The notes beneath the pieces were generated by a model. It worked only from the letters and a program-made list of their open reading frames with translations, had not been told where the DNA came from and searched no databases. From a plasmid: 64,000 nucleotides of DNA. Shown here one piece after another: positions 31,840 to 42,642 of this stretch; the stretch's first letter is position 1; each line of letters starts with the position of its first letter. The stretch is from sequence record NZ_CP110904.1. One strand, given 5' to 3'. The position numbers were made by a program, and so were the translations under genes.

Positions 31840-32291
31840 TTCAGTAATGGTACAGATAGTTCCGCTGGTACCTATGGCGGTCTATCTGTATGAGTTTAAA
31901 AAATTTTTCTAGTAACGAAGGACCTAAAATGATTAGGTAAGAACGGGGTAAGCCCGTCCTATGTCCTGGATGGTGATAATGCAGGTTGCCCACAGGAAAA
32001 TCATCATGGAAATCCCAAATCCCAAATCCCGTGCCAGTGCGTAATCCAAGAAGTAAAACGTAACCCATTGATTTATATGTCAAAGCAAGTTTAAAATGTC
32101 ACCTCTTTGTGCAAGATAGAAAGGGCACTTTCAGCCTATGTAATCATATTAATGTGACTGCTGCGTTATCCCACTCAACCAATTAATAAAGCAAAAGTTA
32201 AATATGAAAGACTGGAATAAAAATATAACGAAAACATCTTAATATGGAAATATCTGTGTCAACGGGATCTTTAGTTATTGAATATCTGGTT

Positions 32292-33098
32292 CTAAATAGG
32301 TTCTACATTCAACGGGAAGGGAAACCAAATATCTATATGTTTTTTATAAATACCATTACGTGGCAAACAACAATCTGCATATTTTTTTAAAGAATCTCCA
32401 CATGGACAAATATTTTCTGGCGATAATACTCCATCATGTTCTTTCGCCTTAAATCTCCAGGTCGTAATATTGAAAATTTGATGTGGGGATTGTATGTATT
32501 TGACAACACTAATTAAAGTTGAATAGTTATAATGATCACCATCATTGGAGAAAAAAACACTACATTTGTTAACGGGATTACTAACTATGTCATAAGTAAT
32601 TAATTCAAAATCGATCACTTCATCAAAGCAAAGAACTCCATTATAAAGTTTATTTTTAACATGACCACAATCATTAATAAAACTACGGGTTGTATTACAT
32701 ACTGAACATTTCACTTCTTTTATTATTTCACGAGAACTACCGAAGATTTTATATGGGAATAACGCCTGCCAATTACATACCATTCTCGCTAAGAAGTTAA
32801 CACCATAGAAATTAACCTCAGGCAGAAACTCATTATTTTCTTTAATATGTATTAAATCTATTTCTATCCTTTCAAGTTCTACCCATGCTTCATAAAAATC
32901 ACCTCTTGTAAGTAAATTAATGACTTGAATATATTTTAAATGGGCTAGTAAAATTGTTTTGTATAAAAACAATCTGTTTGATTCATTATTCAAGCTCAAG
33001 GATTGAGCTTTTTTTAACTCAGCATTAAGATAATCAAGAATAGCACTATCTTCTTGAGTAATACACATCCAACGCTTTAACTTTTCGTGAATATTCAT
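32292..33098 (-). CDS. Hypothetical protein with a C-terminal SEC-C metal-binding motif (268 aa)
   Basis: C-terminal CPCGDSLKKYADCC resembles the SecA C-terminal (SEC-C) zinc-binding motif; AT-rich gene. Confidence 0.7.
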   Translation of the reverse strand: MNIHEKLKRWMCITQEDSAILDYLNAELKKAQSLSLNNESNRLFLYKTILLAHLKYIQVINLLTRGDFYEAWVELERIEIDLIHIKENNEFLPEVNFYGVNFLARMVCNWQALFPYKIFGSSREIIKEVKCSVCNTTRSFINDCGHVKNKLYNGVLCFDEVIDFELITYDIVSNPVNKCSVFFSNDGDHYNYSTLISVVKYIQSPHQIFNITTWRFKAKEHDGVLSPENICPCGDSLKKYADCCLPRNGIYKKHIDIWFPFPLNVEPI

Positions 33099-33115
33099 AA
33101 TATCTATATAGATTT

Positions 33116-33562
33116 TTATTTGATTTTGTTAATTACTTTTAAAACATCGTCTACTTTTCCAGAAACAGTGTATTTCACATGTTTTCCTGATTTATTTTTT
33201 TTAATTATAGAGACTTTAACGTCTATATCTCTAGTTCCAAAGTTATCAATTTTTTTCTGAATATAATTTGAAACAAGATTTACTAAAAAAGGTATCATTA
33301 CTGATGTGGCAAAGAAAGTGCCTAACGCTAACGTTATACTGTTTAATTGCAGGTACGAAACACCATTAGAATCTCCGTACACTTTAACATTAGAATGTGA
33401 TTGCTTGGTGAACTGGAAAAAATCCAGTGCATTACCTCCAGTAATTTTTGAACTATCAAAAACGATCGCAATCTCATCATCTTGAGGTTCATATGAAGAA
33501 ATGATTTTTACCTCTTCATCTTCATCACTCATTTCACTCAAAGTAATGGGGTTCATTCTCAA
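33116..33562 (-). CDS. Hypothetical protein (148 aa) with one predicted TM segment
   Basis: ORF 17 nt upstream of the SEC-C gene; hydrophobic LALGTFFATSVMIPFLVNLV. Confidence 0.55.
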   Translation of the reverse strand: MRMNPITLSEMSDEDEEVKIISSYEPQDDEIAIVFDSSKITGGNALDFFQFTKQSHSNVKVYGDSNGVSYLQLNSITLALGTFFATSVMIPFLVNLVSNYIQKKIDNFGTRDIDVKVSIIKKNKSGKHVKYTVSGKVDDVLKVINKIK

Positions 33563-33708
33563 CTCCTTGTTTTATATTTTTACATTCAAATTTTACTATA
33601 CGACTGGTTAATTGCTCCTGTCCAACACACACCAGAGTTCATATGCTTAGCATACAAGGGACCAATGCCAGTAGCGACAGGCTAGTGTGTCAAAAAACCA
33701 CATGAAGA

Positions 33709-35070
33709 TCAATCTCCTGCGGAAAATTTGGCCGCAATTAGTTTCATTGTCCTTTCCATGCCTTGATAAACTGTCGCATCTGTAATGTTTAACCTTGCGA
33801 GTTCCTTAAGTATTCTAGCTTTGTTTCTGATCACTATTTTTTCTACTTTAAACTCTTGCATAGCATCATCAGGGTTTGAAACTAAATCGGGATAAACAGC
33901 ATTATTCCCAAATAATAAGAATGCACCTGACTGTGATGACATCCTTTCATTATTATTTCTTCCTTTAACGAAAATTAACCTTTCCAAATCTGATGGTATA
34001 ATTACATCTTTAAAATAAGGTTTTTCATCTTTAATGTAATGTATGAGTTTTTGACAAGCTTCAGTTTTATTGAAAGCCTCCTTGTCCATTTTACAATCCA
34101 GCTGATCTTTCAGTGTTTGACTTAGCATTGATATATTTGATATGCAACTTACTGTATCAGAGTCAAAGAATTTTATACGATCCCTTTTTGTTTTGAAAAT
34201 AATAACATGTCCATCAACCTCATTTGTATTTTCATTATTACTAATGTCGCAACAAGCGAAATACAGAGCGATTAGTGGATTTGATGTTATATCCAACAAA
34301 CGAGTTGGTAGTCCGTAGTGTTGCATCCTTACTAACTTGTCTAGCATTGTTTTATCATCAACAAACTCAGTTGGCCTTGCTGTTAGGGCTTCACGGACTA
34401 AATTTGATTCACTGTGCAAATGCTTGAAGTTACCTTTTTTGTTTTTCCTGAAAACTGATGGAGCCAACTCGTAAGATACATCAGAATGTCCACGATAAAA
34501 TATTTCTGCATCTTCTTCATGATCTTGTTCTAAAACACGCGCCATGAAACTTTGAACATTATCTATTATTGGGTAGTTATCAACTTCATCAGGAAGTGCT
34601 TCAGTAGGAGGAAGTGGTGTACTTCTTGTCGTTATATTTAGAAGTGCTAATGTTTGATTTAAATCACGTGCTTTTATTCCCCAGTGAGTCCGTTTCAGCC
34701 CATATGCACCTAATTCTAAAGCTGTTTGATATAACTCTTTGTTTATCACTACGACATCATCTTGTGAGTGAGTGATTCTGAAATCAAACTCAACATTTTT
34801 GTTAACTGTTCGTAGATTTGAAATTACACCAAGTCGCAAAGTAATGTATTCAACATTGTCTCGGGAATAAAGTTCTGACATAAAAAGCGTAGGTAATTTC
34901 TCAATATAAGATAATGCTTTATCATTCAAAGGCGTTAACTTCAACCGGATGTCATCAGAGGTGCCTTCTAACATACGTGATATAGGAAAATCACAACTCC
35001 CACTAACCCGTTCATACATGGGCCAATGTTCAAAATAGTCAGGTTCTCCGCCCATAATTAGATTAAACAT
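33709..35070 (-). CDS. FRG-domain protein (453 aa)
   Basis: EIFYRGHSDVSYELAPSVFR and MQHYGLPTRLLDITSNPLIALYFAC resemble the FRG domain; AT-rich. Confidence 0.7.
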   Translation of the reverse strand: MFNLIMGGEPDYFEHWPMYERVSGSCDFPISRMLEGTSDDIRLKLTPLNDKALSYIEKLPTLFMSELYSRDNVEYITLRLGVISNLRTVNKNVEFDFRITHSQDDVVVINKELYQTALELGAYGLKRTHWGIKARDLNQTLALLNITTRSTPLPPTEALPDEVDNYPIIDNVQSFMARVLEQDHEEDAEIFYRGHSDVSYELAPSVFRKNKKGNFKHLHSESNLVREALTARPTEFVDDKTMLDKLVRMQHYGLPTRLLDITSNPLIALYFACCDISNNENTNEVDGHVIIFKTKRDRIKFFDSDTVSCISNISMLSQTLKDQLDCKMDKEAFNKTEACQKLIHYIKDEKPYFKDVIIPSDLERLIFVKGRNNNERMSSQSGAFLLFGNNAVYPDLVSNPDDAMQEFKVEKIVIRNKARILKELARLNITDATVYQGMERTMKLIAAKFSAGD

Positions 35071-35083
35071 TAAAACTAAATCC

Positions 35084-35887
35084 TTATATTTTACTTAATG
35101 AATTATTTACAATCCAATCAATTGCGCCAGAGGTGCGAATCCAAGGCTTTATATTATGATTCACATAATAAATGGCTTCATCCATTCCACCTAACGTGAT
35201 ATATCCACTGTTAGACTTGATCTGTAATCTGCACTTCGATAACAAGCCGGGGATGTGTCTATTAGAATCAATCGCAGCTTTAGCGATATCATCGGCATCC
35301 GGGGATGACTGTCGGTAGGCGAGTAGGGCGCGTGTATACTGAAAAAACGAACGCATATCCCCAGGATAATCGTCCAGTAGCAAGGCCAGATCATCCACCA
35401 TTTCAAGCTCAAGGTAATAGTTCGCTAATAAATGACGAATCCCCTGGTTATCGTTCGGGTTGAGCTTCAGCATTTCGCGGCTATGAGCCATAGCCGGATA
35501 AAAATTACCAGACTCCCATAAGGCCTCAGCCAAAGCTGCTTTTGCTCTCATATATGGACGTGTTTCGACAAATCCCCAGAAACGTCCTGCGAACTCCTGA
35601 AAATCCTCGCCAAGTGCAATGCTGGCTGCGTACAAAGCAGTCTCCAGCTTCCCGATTTTTGACTCAGGAGGTTCTTGAGATATCTCGCAGTAGAATGAGT
35701 ATGCGTCAGCACAGAGCGGGGATTTCTTGATAGCTTTTCTGATGAGTTTCAGCACAACTTCCAGGTCATCATTTTCCCAGGCATCGAACATGAACTCCTG
35801 AGCCGCAACCAGATCTAGATGTAATTGCTCAGAGCTGACAGCAGTTTTATACAAATCAACGCGCTTTGTAGTCGGGAATTTAATCAT
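35084..35887 (-). CDS. Hypothetical alpha-helical (TPR-like) protein (267 aa)
   Basis: Long ORF of moderate GC; no confident family call. Confidence 0.65.
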   Translation of the reverse strand: MIKFPTTKRVDLYKTAVSSEQLHLDLVAAQEFMFDAWENDDLEVVLKLIRKAIKKSPLCADAYSFYCEISQEPPESKIGKLETALYAASIALGEDFQEFAGRFWGFVETRPYMRAKAALAEALWESGNFYPAMAHSREMLKLNPNDNQGIRHLLANYYLELEMVDDLALLLDDYPGDMRSFFQYTRALLAYRQSSPDADDIAKAAIDSNRHIPGLLSKCRLQIKSNSGYITLGGMDEAIYYVNHNIKPWIRTSGAIDWIVNNSLSKI

Positions 35888-35902
35888 CTCAAGTATCCTT
35901 TT

Positions 35903-37318
35903 GGGGACTCACTGTTCCGGTACTTTGCAGCACTGATGGTCGATTCTATCGCTTTGAACTTGCCACAAACAAGCTCGGGTCTGCCAGAACGGGATTGATA
36001 GCCCGGAGCTGTTCCTGGATGCGCACCTGAGCCTTACGGCTGGGCGATTTTTTGCTTCGTTCCCGTTTGCCTTCGCTTTCCCGCTCATCCTGTTTTACCT
36101 GAGCCAGTCGGAGTACAGTCCCGAGACGTTTGTTATCAACAATCTGCCCCTGGTCGACACAGGCCAGCTTATCAAATGCCTGGCACTTAAGGCTCCGGTG
36201 CCCATAGAGGAAGGCGAGGGTGCCATCGGGATAATCCAGTACTTTAATTTTTTCACCGGCAAGACGGCTATTTTCTTCTGTGGTGTCCATGAGATAAAGG
36301 ATCTTATCGTACTGGAAGGTCAGTGATTTCGACACGGTACGAACATCATGCCAGGCAAAGATGTCTCTTAATTCATCGGGGCTTTCCTGCACCGGACGAT
36401 GCAAATCTTTGGGGAACTTAGCCGGTCGTGAAAACCGGCTGTTAAAGTCAGCGATGAAAGTGGCAAGCCAGGCATTTGCGGCCTCAATGCCGGTTATACC
36501 TTCCAGACGCATTTCTTTGATCAGCCGATCCTGAAGTGTCTGATTCGCACGTTCCACGCGGCCTTTAGCTTCAGAGCTGTTGGCACAAATAAGCTCGATT
36601 GCCAGGTCATAAAGCACACGTCCGAACTGGGTAACGGTGGTATTGCGTTTCTCCGGACCACTGACGCGAAATATTGCGTGTTTGTCACTGTACAGCGATA
36701 CCGGCTTCCCATGCTGCTCGATGTATTCCCGGGTTGCCAGCATGTAGTCAAAGGCTGTTTCTGACTCGCTGAACCGCAAATGCATCAGACGCCCGGTGGC
36801 ATCATCGATAAAGACCAGCAGGCAGCATTTTGGCGCACGGCCTTCAAACCAGTCATGGTGGGAGCCGTCGATCTGGATAAGTTCACCCAGACAATCACGC
36901 CGATGTCGGGGTTGATAAACCCGTGACTTACGGCGAGCATGCGGGACCCAGAGTCCGTCAGACGTCATCCAGTTGCGGACGGTCTCGATTGAAAGCCGGA
37001 TATTATGGCGCTCTCTGAGTTTTTCTGCGGCCAGTGTGGGCCCAAAGTCACTGTAGTTTTCACGTATCAGCGTGAGTACTCGTAGTTTGAGAGATTCGGT
37101 CAACCGGCGGTTGCTGGGCTGGCCGCGTTTGCGGCTGACAAGTCCTTCAGCACCAGAAACTCGGTAACGATTGATAAGTCGTTGCGCCTGACGTTCTGAA
37201 ATGCCAAGCTGTGATGCTGCATCACGACGGCGTAGACGCTTTTCACAAACTGCCTGTATCACCGGTAGGCGGTGGATCTCTTTATCTGACATGGTCACCA
37301 ACATGCGTTGAGTCCCTT
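35903..37318 (-). mobile_element. ISNCY-family (IS1202/ISKpn21-like) insertion sequence, about 1.4 kb; boundaries approximate
   Basis: Imperfect terminal IRs GGGACTCAC / GGGACTCAAC at 35904 and 37316; a single transposase ORF fills the element. Confidence 0.6.
35946..37292 (-). CDS. ISNCY-family transposase (HTH + DDE integrase core)
   Basis: MSDKEIHRLPVIQAVCEKRLRRRDAASQLGISERQAQRLINRYR... then a DDE/rve region. Confidence 0.8.
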   Translation of the reverse strand: MSDKEIHRLPVIQAVCEKRLRRRDAASQLGISERQAQRLINRYRVSGAEGLVSRKRGQPSNRRLTESLKLRVLTLIRENYSDFGPTLAAEKLRERHNIRLSIETVRNWMTSDGLWVPHARRKSRVYQPRHRRDCLGELIQIDGSHHDWFEGRAPKCCLLVFIDDATGRLMHLRFSESETAFDYMLATREYIEQHGKPVSLYSDKHAIFRVSGPEKRNTTVTQFGRVLYDLAIELICANSSEAKGRVERANQTLQDRLIKEMRLEGITGIEAANAWLATFIADFNSRFSRPAKFPKDLHRPVQESPDELRDIFAWHDVRTVSKSLTFQYDKILYLMDTTEENSRLAGEKIKVLDYPDGTLAFLYGHRSLKCQAFDKLACVDQGQIVDNKRLGTVLRLAQVKQDERESEGKRERSKKSPSRKAQVRIQEQLRAINPVLADPSLFVASSKR

Positions 37319-37503
37319 AGAATTGCATTCAGTTTAGCTTACTCTAAGGTGACGTTTCTATCTGGATAAAAAGTGACATTACTAAATGGTTCTAACATTA
37401 TAAGTGCGTATAACGTGGATTATGTTAACCCAAAAACGTTTAATTGTAATGGATAGTCGAGTTGGGTATACTTTCGGGAAGTACTTCAATTCATAATATA
37501 CCC

Positions 37504-38028
37504 ATGACTGAACTCGTTGAAAGTAAGCTGTGCCGAAAATGCAAGACTCTGAAGAGCTTGTTAGACTTCGGAATTGACCGTAAAAGTAAGGATGGCCATA
37601 AGACTCGCTGCCGCCAGTGCGTAGCTGGCGAAAACCGGTTGTATAAATTGAATAACCGCAATGTAGTCAATGCAGCCAAGAACCGGTATCGTCAACGCCA
37701 TACCGCCGAAATGGCCGACTATATGCGTTTGTATCGTGCCAGGGTCCGTGGAAGCCAGCTGGCTGACCGCCACCGTCAGCACCTGGAGTTTCACAAAGAA
37801 GTGAATATTCAGCTTCAATTTAGGCTCGGAGCCATCATGGCCTCTCAGTTACTTCAGAATGACAAAACTATAGAGATTGAAAAGTTACTTTTAAAGTACC
37901 TTAAATCGCCTGAATCTGCTTCCGGAAGAAAGGCTCTTAATGAAGCTAGGGGAATCGCTTTCAGAGCGAAAATATCATATGAGGCGTTCAATACTCTTTT
38001 GAATACATTGAACAGATCACGAATTTAG
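37504..38028 (+). CDS. Hypothetical Cys-rich (Zn-ribbon-like) basic protein (174 aa)
   Basis: CRKCKTLKSLLDF...CRQCVAGENR paired CxxC motifs; start taken at MTELVESK. Confidence 0.55.
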   Translation: MTELVESKLCRKCKTLKSLLDFGIDRKSKDGHKTRCRQCVAGENRLYKLNNRNVVNAAKNRYRQRHTAEMADYMRLYRARVRGSQLADRHRQHLEFHKEVNIQLQFRLGAIMASQLLQNDKTIEIEKLLLKYLKSPESASGRKALNEARGIAFRAKISYEAFNTLLNTLNRSRI

Positions 38029-38132
38029 ATGCCCCGTTAGTATAAATCGTGTTTCTAAAGGCTTTCGTATGTTTAAAAAAGGAAAAAGCTTAATAGCTTT
38101 TAGTGATTAAAATTACTATGCAGGCGAAATAA

Positions 38133-39773
38133 ATGAGCAGATTTTATGATTTCAATGCGTTAGAACTAATGGAAATGGCCCCCATATCTATCTTCAGTCG
38201 TAACAAAAATACTGAGATTTTCCTGGATGATCAATTATTAGAGCAGGAACGTCGCCATTGCCTGTCGGTTCATATTTTTTGCAGAAAGCTCGAAAGATTT
38301 GAAGAAGAATTTAACAGCAATAAAAGTTCCAGAAATCGCTTGGTTAAGTTCCTTGAATCACAAGAATGCGATTTTATCTATGATATAGCTAAAGAGTGGT
38401 CATCTTACAATTTACAAAAAGTTCCTCAAAGCACAACTTATACGTACTTGAAAACACTTGTCGAACACATCAACGAACTCAAAAGTAAGTTTGGCATTAT
38501 GAGTTATGCCACTTATCACAACAATTACATTCATAACTTAATTACGACAATCAATGAAAACCTCGTAAATATTAATTATGATTTATCCCTTATTACATCA
38601 ACAAAGCGAAATTGGAATCTTTATCGAACTGAATTCGGACTAATTCTAGCGAACGGGATTAGGAAAGTATTACTTATTGATAAATTAGAACATTTGAAAA
38701 ACAAAGATCTTAAGCCGGGACTTATTTTCTTCATTACAACGCCAGTGTCACAAGATGTCTTGCAGGATTTATTTTCACGTCACCAGCCTTACATTATGAT
38801 TTATAGGAATGAAAAAGGCATTATAAAAACAGTTGAACCACTTCATCTGCTTACCGATGCTCTTTATGAAATCATTTCACTGGCTTCAAATATTAAAAAT
38901 AAAGACTCAATGTTCTTTGAACCTAAAAATAAGTTAACCTCTATTATTGAAGAATTGTTTGAGCTCCAGAACCTTTTTGAAGAATACATGCGCCAGAGTT
39001 TTATGCAGGTCAGATTAAGTGAAAGAAACACACAATATATATATAATAAAATCAGATCACTTAAACATCAAGCCAATCATCTTGAGTTTGGAAATACAGA
39101 AAAAATACGGACGCTCGCTTTTAAACTAGGTGTATTAGCTGATTCATTTAATAATTACGATGTTAAAAGCAAGACAATCGACCTTCTGCCTAATACTATT
39201 TTCACTGGCATTCAGAACATTACCAGCAACAGTAATTTGTATCGTGTGAAAAACGACATTCTGTTTTATGAAAATAACCTTACAGCATCATTATTAACCT
39301 GGTTGAAAGCAAGCCTTGAACTTAAAAAGTTTATGGTGGTCCAGGAAGATCAGATCGCAAACGGGCGAAGTGATATTTCTATTTTCTCTTCAGGTGTGAG
39401 AGTTTGCATTATCGAATCCAAGTTAATACAAGAACATTCCACCGAAGTGCCAATAAAATCTGTAATAACAAAAGGAATATTTCAACTTTATACAAAGTAT
39501 TCAGACTCTGTTGCTCAGTCATTTATCGTTCCGCCTGACCTATATCTGGTGTTATTCTGCTTTGACCATAAATTTGTGAATATTCGTAAACACACTGAAT
39601 CAGCGCTTGAAGACTACCAAAAAGAAAACAGAAATATTAAACTTGAAATGATGCACAGCACCCATCATCAAACCATACGCTTTAGCTTGCGAGAGTCTGG
39701 CGGAATATTTGCGGATAAAGTCGTTTATATTAACTTAACTATAGCAAATCTCAGGACAAAGGATAAAAATTGA
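38133..39773 (+). CDS. Hypothetical protein (546 aa), very AT-rich; possible C-terminal PD-(D/E)xK-like motif
   Basis: Long ORF of about 31% GC; RSDISIFSSGVRVCIIESKL fits a D-x14-E-x-K nuclease pattern (weak). Confidence 0.7.
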   Translation: MSRFYDFNALELMEMAPISIFSRNKNTEIFLDDQLLEQERRHCLSVHIFCRKLERFEEEFNSNKSSRNRLVKFLESQECDFIYDIAKEWSSYNLQKVPQSTTYTYLKTLVEHINELKSKFGIMSYATYHNNYIHNLITTINENLVNINYDLSLITSTKRNWNLYRTEFGLILANGIRKVLLIDKLEHLKNKDLKPGLIFFITTPVSQDVLQDLFSRHQPYIMIYRNEKGIIKTVEPLHLLTDALYEIISLASNIKNKDSMFFEPKNKLTSIIEELFELQNLFEEYMRQSFMQVRLSERNTQYIYNKIRSLKHQANHLEFGNTEKIRTLAFKLGVLADSFNNYDVKSKTIDLLPNTIFTGIQNITSNSNLYRVKNDILFYENNLTASLLTWLKASLELKKFMVVQEDQIANGRSDISIFSSGVRVCIIESKLIQEHSTEVPIKSVITKGIFQLYTKYSDSVAQSFIVPPDLYLVLFCFDHKFVNIRKHTESALEDYQKENRNIKLEMMHSTHHQTIRFSLRESGGIFADKVVYINLTIANLRTKDKN

Positions 39774-40243
39774 GAGACACAATGGTAACAGTGAATAACA
39801 CACCTATACATCTCTCTGACCTTAATGATGCCTTTTTAGCGGTAGACAGTGCAAAGCTGGAATGCGATGGGCATACTTTAATGCTCAGCCATGCCTTGAT
39901 GGAGGCTAAGATCCCACATCTTCGCTTCCTTGGGAAAGTTACCGTTAAGGGATGTGATTTTGTGCTCCCCCCCCACTTATGGTTGCAAATCGACGGCTTC
40001 ACGGTGGACTACCGCCTCCGGATGTGGATTAACCTTTTCTGTGGCCCAGATAAAGCCTCAGGGGCGCCCCATGGCATTTTCAGCAGCCTTCATTACCCGA
40101 AGCATCATTATGAACCACTGAGGCCAGCACCGTGTAATCTACTAGCCCCAAATCTGCTCGATTTAATTACCGATGGATTCGCCTCAAAAATCTGCATCCC
40201 GGAATCTACGTTGGCATGGTATTCGACAGGACAAATGAAATAA
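39770..40243 (+). CDS. Hypothetical protein (157 aa) overlapping the preceding gene by 4 nt
   Basis: ATGA start/stop overlap implies translational coupling; markedly higher GC than its partner. Confidence 0.6.
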   Translation: MRDTMVTVNNTPIHLSDLNDAFLAVDSAKLECDGHTLMLSHALMEAKIPHLRFLGKVTVKGCDFVLPPHLWLQIDGFTVDYRLRMWINLFCGPDKASGAPHGIFSSLHYPKHHYEPLRPAPCNLLAPNLLDLITDGFASKICIPESTLAWYSTGQMK

Positions 40244-40463
40244 TGTTATCCGGTAAATAGTAGATAACTCCGGTCGTTAGGAAAATTGGCTTTGATAGGG
40301 TTACTTCAGTTCTTTTAGCCACGACTTTCTTTCAAAGGATGAATGTGAAAATATTCCCGTTTGAGGTTCAAAACTCTATAGCCGTTTTGAACCATCTCAG
40401 ATTGTAATTTTACCATCGAGCTCTTACTGGCGAAGGTTCCAATGGTGAATGCGGTAAATCTGC

Positions 40464-40649
40464 TTAACGGAACCATTCCGGATGTCGCATACGATCAGCT
40501 TTAATAACTTGCGTGTTCAATTCAATGACTTCCGTCGGTGTTAAAATTAAGGCATCTGGATTCGAAATTAATGGTCGTAGAACCACCTCCCCTTTTTTAT
40601 CATCTTTAGAACCGTAGATATTAATTAGAAAATGCATGCGTTGATTTAA
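40464..40649 (-). pseudogene. 3' remnant (61 codons) of a gene disrupted by IS5
   Basis: Listed ORF 40464..40739 is chimeric: its first 30 codons lie within IS5; native part ...MHFLINIYGSKDDKKGEVVLRPLISNPDALILTPTEVIELNTQVIKADRMRHPEWFR. Confidence 0.6.
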
Positions 40650-41845
<1,196 letters not shown>

Positions 41846-41920
41846 TTAATTCTGATTGACTTACCGGTGATGCTGCCAACTTACTGATTTAGTGTATGAT
41901 GGTGTTTTTGAGGTGCTCCA

Positions 41921-42196
41921 GTGGCTTCTGTTTCTATCAGCTGTCCCTCCTGTTCAGCTACTGACGGGGTGGTGCGTAACGGCAAAAGCACCGCCGGACA
42001 TCAGCGCTATCTCTGCTCTCACTGCCGTAAAACATGGCAACTGCAGTTCACTTACACCGCTTCTCAACCCGGTACGCACCAGAAAATCATTGATATGGCC
42101 ATGAATGGCGTTGGATGCCGGGCAACTGCCCGCATTATGGGCGTTGGCCTCAACACGATTTTACGTCACTTAAAAAACTCAGGCCGCAGTCGGTAA
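41921..42196 (+). CDS. insA: IS1 InsA
   Basis: 91 aa [43 protein letters not shown]... Confidence 0.95.
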
Positions 42197-42618
42197 CCTC
42201 GCGCATACAGCCGGGCAGTGACGTCATCGTCTGCGCGGAAATGGACGAACAGTGGGGATACGTCGGGGCTAAATCGCGCCAGCGCTGGCTGTTTTACGCG
42301 TATGACAGGCTCCGGAAGACGGTTGTTGCGCACGTATTCGGTGAACGCACTATGGCGACGCTGGGGCGTCTTATGAGCCTGCTGTCACCCTTTGACGTGG
42401 TGATATGGATGACGGATGGCTGGCCGCTGTATGAATCCCGCCTGAAGGGAAAGCTGCACGTAATCAGCAAGCGATATACGCAGCGAATTGAGCGGCATAA
42501 CCTGAATCTGAGGCAGCACCTGGCACGGCTGGGACGGAAGTCGCTGTCGTTCTCAAAATCGGTGGAGCTGCATGACAAAGTCATCGGGCATTATCTGAAC
42601 ATAAAACACTATCAATAA
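42115..42618 (+). CDS. insB: IS1 InsB (frameshift partner of InsA)
   Basis: 167 aa ORF in the +1... overlapping frame within IS1. Confidence 0.85.
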
Positions 42619-42642
42619 GTTGGAATCATTACCGACCACGGC

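Follow-up and report, generated by a model that had tools for sequence, protein, structure and literature searches.

A candidate stand-alone defence nuclease in a probable cargo slot of IncHI plasmids

Three neighbouring genes at positions 37504-40243 of a 64,000-nucleotide stretch of plasmid DNA (sequence record NZ_CP110904.1, called the window throughout) raise the question of whether they belong together as one system. They encode a Zn-ribbon protein of 174 amino acids (aa), a 546-aa protein and a 157-aa protein. A preliminary description, made from the DNA sequence alone, placed them as co-oriented plus-strand genes between an insertion sequence (IS) of the ISNCY family on the left and IS5 and IS1 copies on the right, and this layout was borne out. 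It also took the 546- and 157-aa genes for a two-component unit, or all three for a defence or accessory module, a view to be given up if the two overlapping genes were not consistently paired across genomes. Such pairing was not found. We read the locus as a cargo slot of the plasmid backbone, occupied by a stand-alone candidate defence nuclease, the 546-aa protein, and we put the probability of this overall reading at about 0.6.

A slot between two backbone genes

In the window, the 546-aa gene is bordered by the Zn-ribbon gene (37504-38028, plus strand) and the 157-aa gene (39770-40243, plus strand). Other IncHI lineages retain the same two border genes, the Zn-ribbon gene whole or as a fragment, with unrelated genes between them: a minus-strand 308/314-aa gene in loci L010-13 and L019, and a 134-aa gene in L018. 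Because other IncHI plasmids hold unrelated genes between the same two genes, we regard the locus as a cargo slot and not as a three-gene system. The Zn-ribbon homologues of L018 and L019 are 76-77% identical to the window protein and occur there without a 546-aa gene. The 157-aa gene is also kept in L007 and L008, where no Zn-ribbon homologue was detected and where the upstream position is taken by a 629-aa gene (L007) or by small genes including a DpdC-like one (L008). Upstream of the nuclease gene, the Zn-ribbon gene is replaced in L006 and L027 by small open reading frames (ORFs) that are unrelated or only 33% identical. The Zn-ribbon gene belongs to the IncHI backbone, and the 157-aa gene to that of large conjugative (MOBH) plasmids.

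Coordinates of the other slot occupants are, for example, L011 5939-6883 (minus strand) for the 308/314-aa gene, L018 676-1080 for the 134-aa gene and L007 5027-6916 for the 629-aa gene. Neither the 308/314-aa nor the 629-aa gene had a Pfam or PADLOC family.

The distribution of the two proteins over plasmids is very unequal. By tblastn against PLSDB, the 157-aa family was found in 2,235 of 72,556 plasmids (IncHI, IncC and IncFIB/HI1B, plus plasmids of Vibrio, Aeromonas and Providencia), the majority of which lack a 546-aa homologue, as against 65 plasmids carrying the 546-aa family. Outside plasmids, 13 loci with a 546-aa homologue (from Pectobacterium, Pseudomonas, Pseudoalteromonas and metagenomes) were screened, and their fetched flanks lacked a homologue of the Zn-ribbon protein and, with 11 diverse members of the 157-aa family as queries, of the 157-aa protein. 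We therefore think it likely that the three genes are mutually independent.

A rival explanation keeps the 546- and 157-aa genes, with or without the Zn-ribbon gene, as one defence or toxin-immunity module, in which the 157-aa protein would regulate, modify or neutralise the nuclease. Its best argument is gene order. The two genes are adjacent, 546 then 157, in four diverged IncHI lineages, represented by the window (100/100% identity to the window pair), the Salmonella Stanley plasmid (81/86%), L020 (67/65%) and pMY490-mcr-9 (36/51%). They overlap by 4 bp in L020 and pMY490-mcr-9, and in the window the stop codon of the 546-aa gene (TGA, 39771-39773) overlaps the TTG start of the 157-aa gene (39770) as TTGA, not as the ATGA reported earlier, with the Shine-Dalgarno-like sequence AAGGA ahead of the TTG. 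A facultative functional link between the two proteins would be compatible with this adjacency. The adjacency fits a long residence of the gene in the slot, and it does not overturn the distribution data. With the 157-aa family mostly found without a 546-aa partner, including in IncC plasmids, with none of the 13 non-plasmid loci paired, with the slot filled by unrelated genes elsewhere and with the Zn-ribbon gene itself exchangeable, we consider a common module quite improbable. Since the 546- and 157-aa genes are adjacent, often with a 4-bp overlap, in four IncHI lineages, they are probably co-transcribed on these plasmids.

Two alternative starts of the 157-aa gene were noted. Its first ATG lies at 39782, 8 nt past the stop of the 546-aa gene, and would give a protein of 153 aa; the RefSeq start is the GTG at 39791.

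All three ORFs are real genes, because they are under purifying selection: the ratio of non-synonymous to synonymous substitution rates (dN/dS) against diverged homologues was 0.09-0.29 throughout. Their base composition differs. The guanine-plus-cytosine (GC) content is 33.9% for the 546-aa gene (not about 31%, as first given), 47.8% for the 157-aa gene (close to the earlier 47%) and 45.0% for the Zn-ribbon gene, compared with 51.7% for the window. This contrast is explained by a low-GC cargo gene amid backbone genes of 45-48% GC, in line with the earlier suggestion that parts of different origin had been put together here.

The source plasmid belongs to a widespread group. Positions 37400-40300 of the window are 100% identical to the Citrobacter freundii plasmids pCF_324-2 and pP10159-4, and at least 99.8% identical to the same segment of about 40 further large conjugative plasmids of the pNDM-CIT type. 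The latter are typed as IncHI1A/IncHI1B and MOBH, and come from Citrobacter, Klebsiella, Enterobacter, Salmonella, Leclercia and Pantoea. The backbone of the pNDM-CIT type has been named IncHI4 (PMC6140695). The backbone of the window is syntenic with pNDM-CIT, and homology resumes at 42634, after the IS1 copy. If the 546-aa protein is a working immunity factor, these widespread, carbapenemase-carrying IncHI plasmids would bring their hosts phage or plasmid immunity, with consequences for the persistence of the plasmids and for phage therapy.

The 546-aa protein and its nuclease-like domain

In the 546-aa protein, we distinguish an N-terminal region of about 379 residues (38133-39269, plus strand), helical with a small alpha/beta segment, and a C-terminal domain (39270-39773, plus strand). 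Conservation was assessed in an alignment of 49 full-length family members with 17-81% identity to the window protein. Ten columns were invariant, and eight of them fall in the C-terminal 170 residues (E380, E405, G411, D414, E428, K430, Q451 and Y456), where they make a textbook E...D...ExK...Q signature. The weak PD-(D/E)xK-like pattern pointed out earlier (RSDISIF...IIESK) is part of it, as its D414, E428 and K430 are invariant in the homologues. E405 (codon 39345-39347), D414 (39372-39374), E428 (39414-39416) and K430 (39420-39422) are presumed to be the metal-binding and catalytic residues.

Family-level evidence came from the relatives. Of the 49 members, 30 matched Pfam PF08011 (PDDEXK_9, clan CL0236), the strongest at E = 4.3e-9. 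When ten members were tested singly, three exceeded the gathering score (32.6, 27.9 and 27.0 versus 25.5 bits), and the alignments of distant members spanned almost the entire profile (positions 19-101 of 105) with the E...D...ExK...Q residues kept. Weak matches to HSDR_N, the N-terminal nuclease domain of HsdR, were seen in four members. In an AlphaFold2 (AF2) model of the window protein, with a predicted local distance difference test (pLDDT) score of 66.7, the secondary structure of the C-terminus was predicted as alpha-beta-beta-beta-alpha-beta. Structure searches with this full-length model, which is a poor one, were dominated by helical matches, and sequence and profile searches of the PDB with the family gave coiled-coil or helical noise alone. 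Because of transitive sequence homology through its relatives, the C-terminus of the 546-aa protein is very probably a PD-(D/E)xK nuclease domain of PDDEXK_9-like type.

The N-terminal region stands apart from described families. PDDEXK_9 domains are usually preceded by a predicted AAA-ATPase domain in Pfam architectures. In the window protein, the roughly 380 N-terminal residues matched no known family in Pfam or NCBIfam and contained no P-loop or Walker A motif, in agreement with the preliminary description. Nor did searches of Pfam, NCBIfam, PADLOC and PDB reveal in this region a known domain for binding DNA or for reading its modifications. The region does carry a conserved motif, R23/E28/D32, with E28 invariant across the 49 sequences and R23 and D32 conserved to at least 90%. 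Within a known nuclease superfamily, the 546-aa protein is thus a single-protein PD-(D/E)xK candidate with a novel N-terminal region.

Searches with hidden Markov models, which the preliminary description had recommended for the 546- and 157-aa proteins, returned nothing significant from Pfam, NCBIfam, PADLOC or PHROG for either of them, and PF08011 was reached through relatives of the former. The earlier statement that none of the three proteins belongs to a recognisable family holds for the N-terminus of the 546-aa protein; it has to be given up for its PDDEXK_9-like domain, for the transglutaminase/papain-like fold of the 157-aa protein and for the Zn-ribbon protein, which has PHROG matches.

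The 546-aa family is coherent yet rare. A word-indexed search of 5.8 billion proteins gave eight clusters, and when 1.84 billion cluster representatives were searched exhaustively with a profile, 67 were recovered, about 40 of them full length (520-570 aa). Pattern scans by subgroup found four loci in 185,579 species genomes and four in JGI metagenomes. Scans of viral contigs returned one homologue, at the end of a prophage, and tblastn against 50,697 phage genomes returned none. In the literature on PDDEXK_9, on the protein accessions and on IncHI hotspots, we found no description of these genes.

Genomic company and possible role

Relatives of the 546-aa gene are frequently found beside defence genes. 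In Pectobacterium, the relative lies between a Gabija-like AAA_15/AAA_21 and UvrD pair and a Mrr_cat protein, and in a metagenome (L024) it lies directly upstream of a complete QatABCD. In three loci of Pseudoalteromonas type (L017, L025 and L026), the nuclease-family gene overlaps the 3' end of ygjP by 8 bp, directly downstream of hsdR, and either Olokun or the PDC-S20 KAP NTPase is encoded near these relatives. A type XI retron reverse transcriptase is encoded 2.5 kb from the relative in Pseudomonas viridiflava, the relative in L005 lies among toxin-antitoxin genes, and those in L014 and L022 lie within prophages, one of them beside an integrase. Sister plasmids of the source plasmid carry Shedu and PLD-like genes in the corresponding region, with a true SduA in L012 (1.7e-115).

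The order hsdR-ygjP-nuclease, in which ygjP encodes a YgjP-like metallopeptidase, is a conserved arrangement (L017 8182-10675, L025 54-2547, L026 6176-8651).

The gene is dispensable and has been disrupted repeatedly in sister plasmids. An IS1 is inserted after codon 418 (about 39386, after RSDISIF) in a variant whose 426-aa product has 280 database members and ends in GDAANLLI, the translation of the IS1 inverted repeat. An IS5 truncates the gene at about codon 361 (about 39215) in at least five plasmids, and a further IS5 insertion was found in a Klebsiella grimontii plasmid. Taken together, the patchy distribution, low GC content, mobile location, frequent company of defence genes and dispensability form a pattern typical of defence cargo, which is suggestive of such a role. 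The defence candidacy proposed earlier for the locus as a whole is accordingly plausible for the 546-aa gene, from the neighbourhoods of its relatives, and not for the three-gene set.

Several observations weigh against this reading, beside the conserved adjacency of the 546- and 157-aa genes discussed above. The neighbourhood case is one of association only. A 43%-identical homologue (L030 9001-10629) sits alone, with GntR/aminotransferase genes on one side and cytochrome bd genes on the other, and neither mobile-element nor defence genes were called in the 9 kb around it; no defence neighbours were identified for L015 and L032. The domain assignment rests on transitive homology, the window protein itself falling below the thresholds: it had no Pfam match at E ≤ 0.1 and no NCBIfam match, and its single match in PADLOC (PADLOC-DB v2.0), to LmuA, was weak (E = 0.0049, 13.6 bits, residues 358-436, in part within the N-terminal region). 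We would give a defence role of the 546-aa protein about even odds.

Under the preferred reading of a stand-alone candidate in a cargo slot, the 546-aa protein would act as a single-gene immunity or exclusion nuclease, independently of the downstream 157-aa gene in spite of their probable co-transcription. The N-terminal region might recognise a cue or a feature of invader DNA, or might hold the nuclease off, and the C-terminal PD-(D/E)xK domain would then cut DNA. Since no methyltransferase gene is adjacent, the host's own DNA would have to be spared either by triggered activation, as in Shedu, or by a specificity that directs the enzyme to modified DNA, as type IV restriction does.

A close parallel is Shedu (SduA), a defence nuclease made of one protein whose N-terminal sensor domains vary (bioRxiv 10.1101/2023.08.10.552793, 10.1101/2023.08.10.552762). 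Like Shedu, the 546-aa protein is one polypeptide with a C-terminal domain, here a predicted one, of PD-(D/E)xK type, a large variable N-terminus and a setting in defence islands and mobile elements. Unlike Shedu, it had no match to SduA_C/DUF4263 (PF14082) or to the PADLOC SduA models at E ≤ 0.1. It may work in a Shedu-like manner, but membership in Shedu is unsupported, and the searches placed it in no other PADLOC system either.

A second parallel leads to a rival explanation in which the 546-aa protein would be a restriction endonuclease, either dependent on DNA modification (type IV-like) or otherwise directed by sequence, with an N-terminus that recognises DNA, acting constitutively and not as triggered abortive infection. 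With the type IV systems Mrr and McrBC and with the HsdR nuclease the protein shares a predicted PD-(D/E)xK core, a weak similarity to the HsdR nuclease being present in the four members mentioned above, and Mrr_cat and the 3' ends of hsdR-ygjP are among the neighbours of its relatives. Neither in the window nor in the annotated loci of homologues was a methyltransferase called immediately next to the gene; the closest, a cytosine methyltransferase of the backbone, lies about 9 kb off. A classical restriction-modification system of type II-like kind was rejected on this ground, as no cognate methyltransferase gene is adjacent. Against a type IV-like enzyme, the window protein had no Mrr_cat, HSDR_N or GTPase/helicase match, its N-terminal region showed none of the known DNA-binding or modification-reading domains, and the genomic contexts fit an effector of abortive-infection type equally well. 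We judge this explanation unlikely, and it would be a sub-case of the stand-alone defence nuclease more than a true alternative to it.

Enzymes of recombination and repair also contain PD-(D/E)xK domains, and the 546-aa protein could instead serve the biology of plasmids or other mobile elements, as a recombination or resolution nuclease or as a selfish addiction nuclease that the element maintains. That it is carried by conjugative plasmids, lies beside an integrase in prophages and also forms lone islets would suit such a role. We found no consistent link to transposase, integrase, replication or transfer genes, however; the gene is broken by IS elements in many otherwise intact plasmids, and it is absent from most IncHI relatives, where the slot is otherwise filled. 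This makes a mobile-element function very improbable.

The most far-reaching form of the defence nuclease reading remains tentative, and we hold it at somewhat less than even odds. It would make the 546-aa family an undescribed single-gene anti-phage or anti-plasmid system that joins a PDDEXK_9-type nuclease to a novel ATPase-free N-terminal sensor, and would place it in a dedicated cargo-exchange slot of multidrug-resistance IncHI plasmids, upstream of the conserved transglutaminase-like backbone gene. A working defence nuclease of this kind would extend the single-protein nuclease defences by a new N-terminal architecture, and the other slot genes (308/314-aa, 134-aa and 629-aa) would become further defence candidates. 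Bracketed as it is by two backbone genes, the slot offers a practical handle for finding more undescribed cargo genes.

Bordering genes and insertion sequences

The 157-aa protein gave nothing significant in Pfam, NCBIfam, PADLOC, PHROG or PDB sequence searches. It has a transglutaminase/papain-like fold in which C28, H65 and D76 are invariant (codons 39863-39865, 39974-39976 and 40007-40009). C28 is placed at the N-terminus of a helix, and H65 and D76 lie on two successive strands, which is the canonical order of the triad. In this it resembles the transglutaminase-like and papain-fold enzymes LapG, protein glutaminase, arylamine N-acetyltransferase, SseI and TglA. The assignment is at the level of the fold, and we regard the protein as a candidate Cys-His-Asp enzyme with a putative triad. 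Carried by over 2,000 large conjugative plasmids, those of IncC among them, it is an uncharacterised backbone enzyme candidate that merits a study of its own. The family is a conserved part of the backbone in IncC (L028 3974-4582, pBK13048-1) and in IncFIB/IncHI1B (L029 4983-5492) as well.

The Zn-ribbon protein has the two CxxC pairs noted earlier, C10-x2-C13 and C36-x2-C39. Its residues 6-96 matched PHROG 2340 ('endonuclease', 2.2e-12) and PHROG 1035 ('endonuclease VII', 1.2e-9). There was no match in Pfam (including Endonuclease_7 and HNH), PADLOC or PDB sequences, and no clear H-N-H triad could be made out by eye. Some GenBank records, CP078021 and pECO-109b for example, are annotated with an 85-aa minus-strand ORF (37561-37818) in place of this gene. 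The sequence evidence favours the plus-strand Zn-ribbon gene, because the plus frame has a dN/dS of 0.12-0.26 and the PHROG matches.

Scans of the locus for promoters and terminators did no better than on shuffled sequence, and no Rfam families or tandem repeats were found in or around it.

The flanking of the locus by IS elements is incidental, since the three IS types are unrelated and other plasmids differ. On the left lies ISLad2 (ISNCY family; 35890-37399, minus strand), whose transposase (35946-37304) matched the NCBIfam model transpos_ISNCY_2 (NF033594) at 2.7e-152, in agreement with the GenBank annotation. Its right end at 37399 was mapped by alignment to the ISKpn21 copies of pNDM-CIT, and its left end is approximate. 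On the right lie ISKpn26 (IS5 family; 40650-41845, minus strand, terminal repeats 40650-40665 and 41830-41845, as annotated) and an IS1 copy (41866-42633, plus strand, left inverted repeat 41866-41888). Other IS elements surround the locus in pNDM-CIT, and none was called next to it in the Salmonella Stanley plasmid. Local differences between pP10159-4 and pNDM-CIT have been explained by independent insertions of ISLad2, ISKpn26 and ISKpn34, accompanied by deletions next to them (PMC6140695). A composite transposon was rejected, as an ISNCY element on the left and IS5 and IS1 on the right provide no matching IS pair and the flanking elements vary by plasmid. We also rejected the Zn-ribbon gene as a passenger of the ISNCY element, comparable to the 210-aa ORF beside ISKpn21: there is no similarity between the two, and the IS ends 104 bp upstream.

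The insertion of ISKpn26 has cut an adjoining gene. A 91-aa ORF (40464-40739, minus strand) is interrupted by the IS5 element at 40650, its first 30 codons being IS5 sequence, and by tblastn only residues 31-91 matched pNDM-CIT. The remaining part (40464-40649, minus strand) is the 3' remnant of a backbone or accessory gene that encodes 192 aa in pNDM-CIT, as identified by tblastn and annotation.

A further block of genes lies upstream of the locus, at about 31933-35890. It includes a 453-aa FRG-domain protein (33709-35887, minus strand) that matches the PADLOC candidate PDC-S15 at 1.7e-99 and is encoded about 3 kb upstream of the nuclease gene. Next to it is a TPR protein gene, and still further upstream are SecC-motif and 146-aa genes. 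The block is present in the window and in pP10159-4 and is absent from pNDM-CIT and the Salmonella Stanley plasmid, and we regard it as a second cargo block of the same variable region.

Distinct ISNCY elements were found just upstream of the locus in several plasmids, namely ISLad2 in the window (junction at 37395-37400), ISKpn21 in pNDM-CIT and others in pECO-109b, pMY490-mcr-9 and pKP64477b, and ISLad2 and ISKpn21 abut the identical nucleotide. The shared position suggests a preferred ISNCY target or an exchange between IS copies. Between the end of ISLad2 and the Zn-ribbon gene lies the backbone intergenic leader of that gene (37400-37503, plus strand), which includes a conserved block of about 31 bp (37398-37428, the first two bases belonging to the IS end). 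This block is single-copy in the window and, by blastn-short, 90-96% identical in the diverged IncHI loci L008/9, L012, L019 and L020, where its distance upstream of the slot varies; it may be a regulatory or a recombination site.

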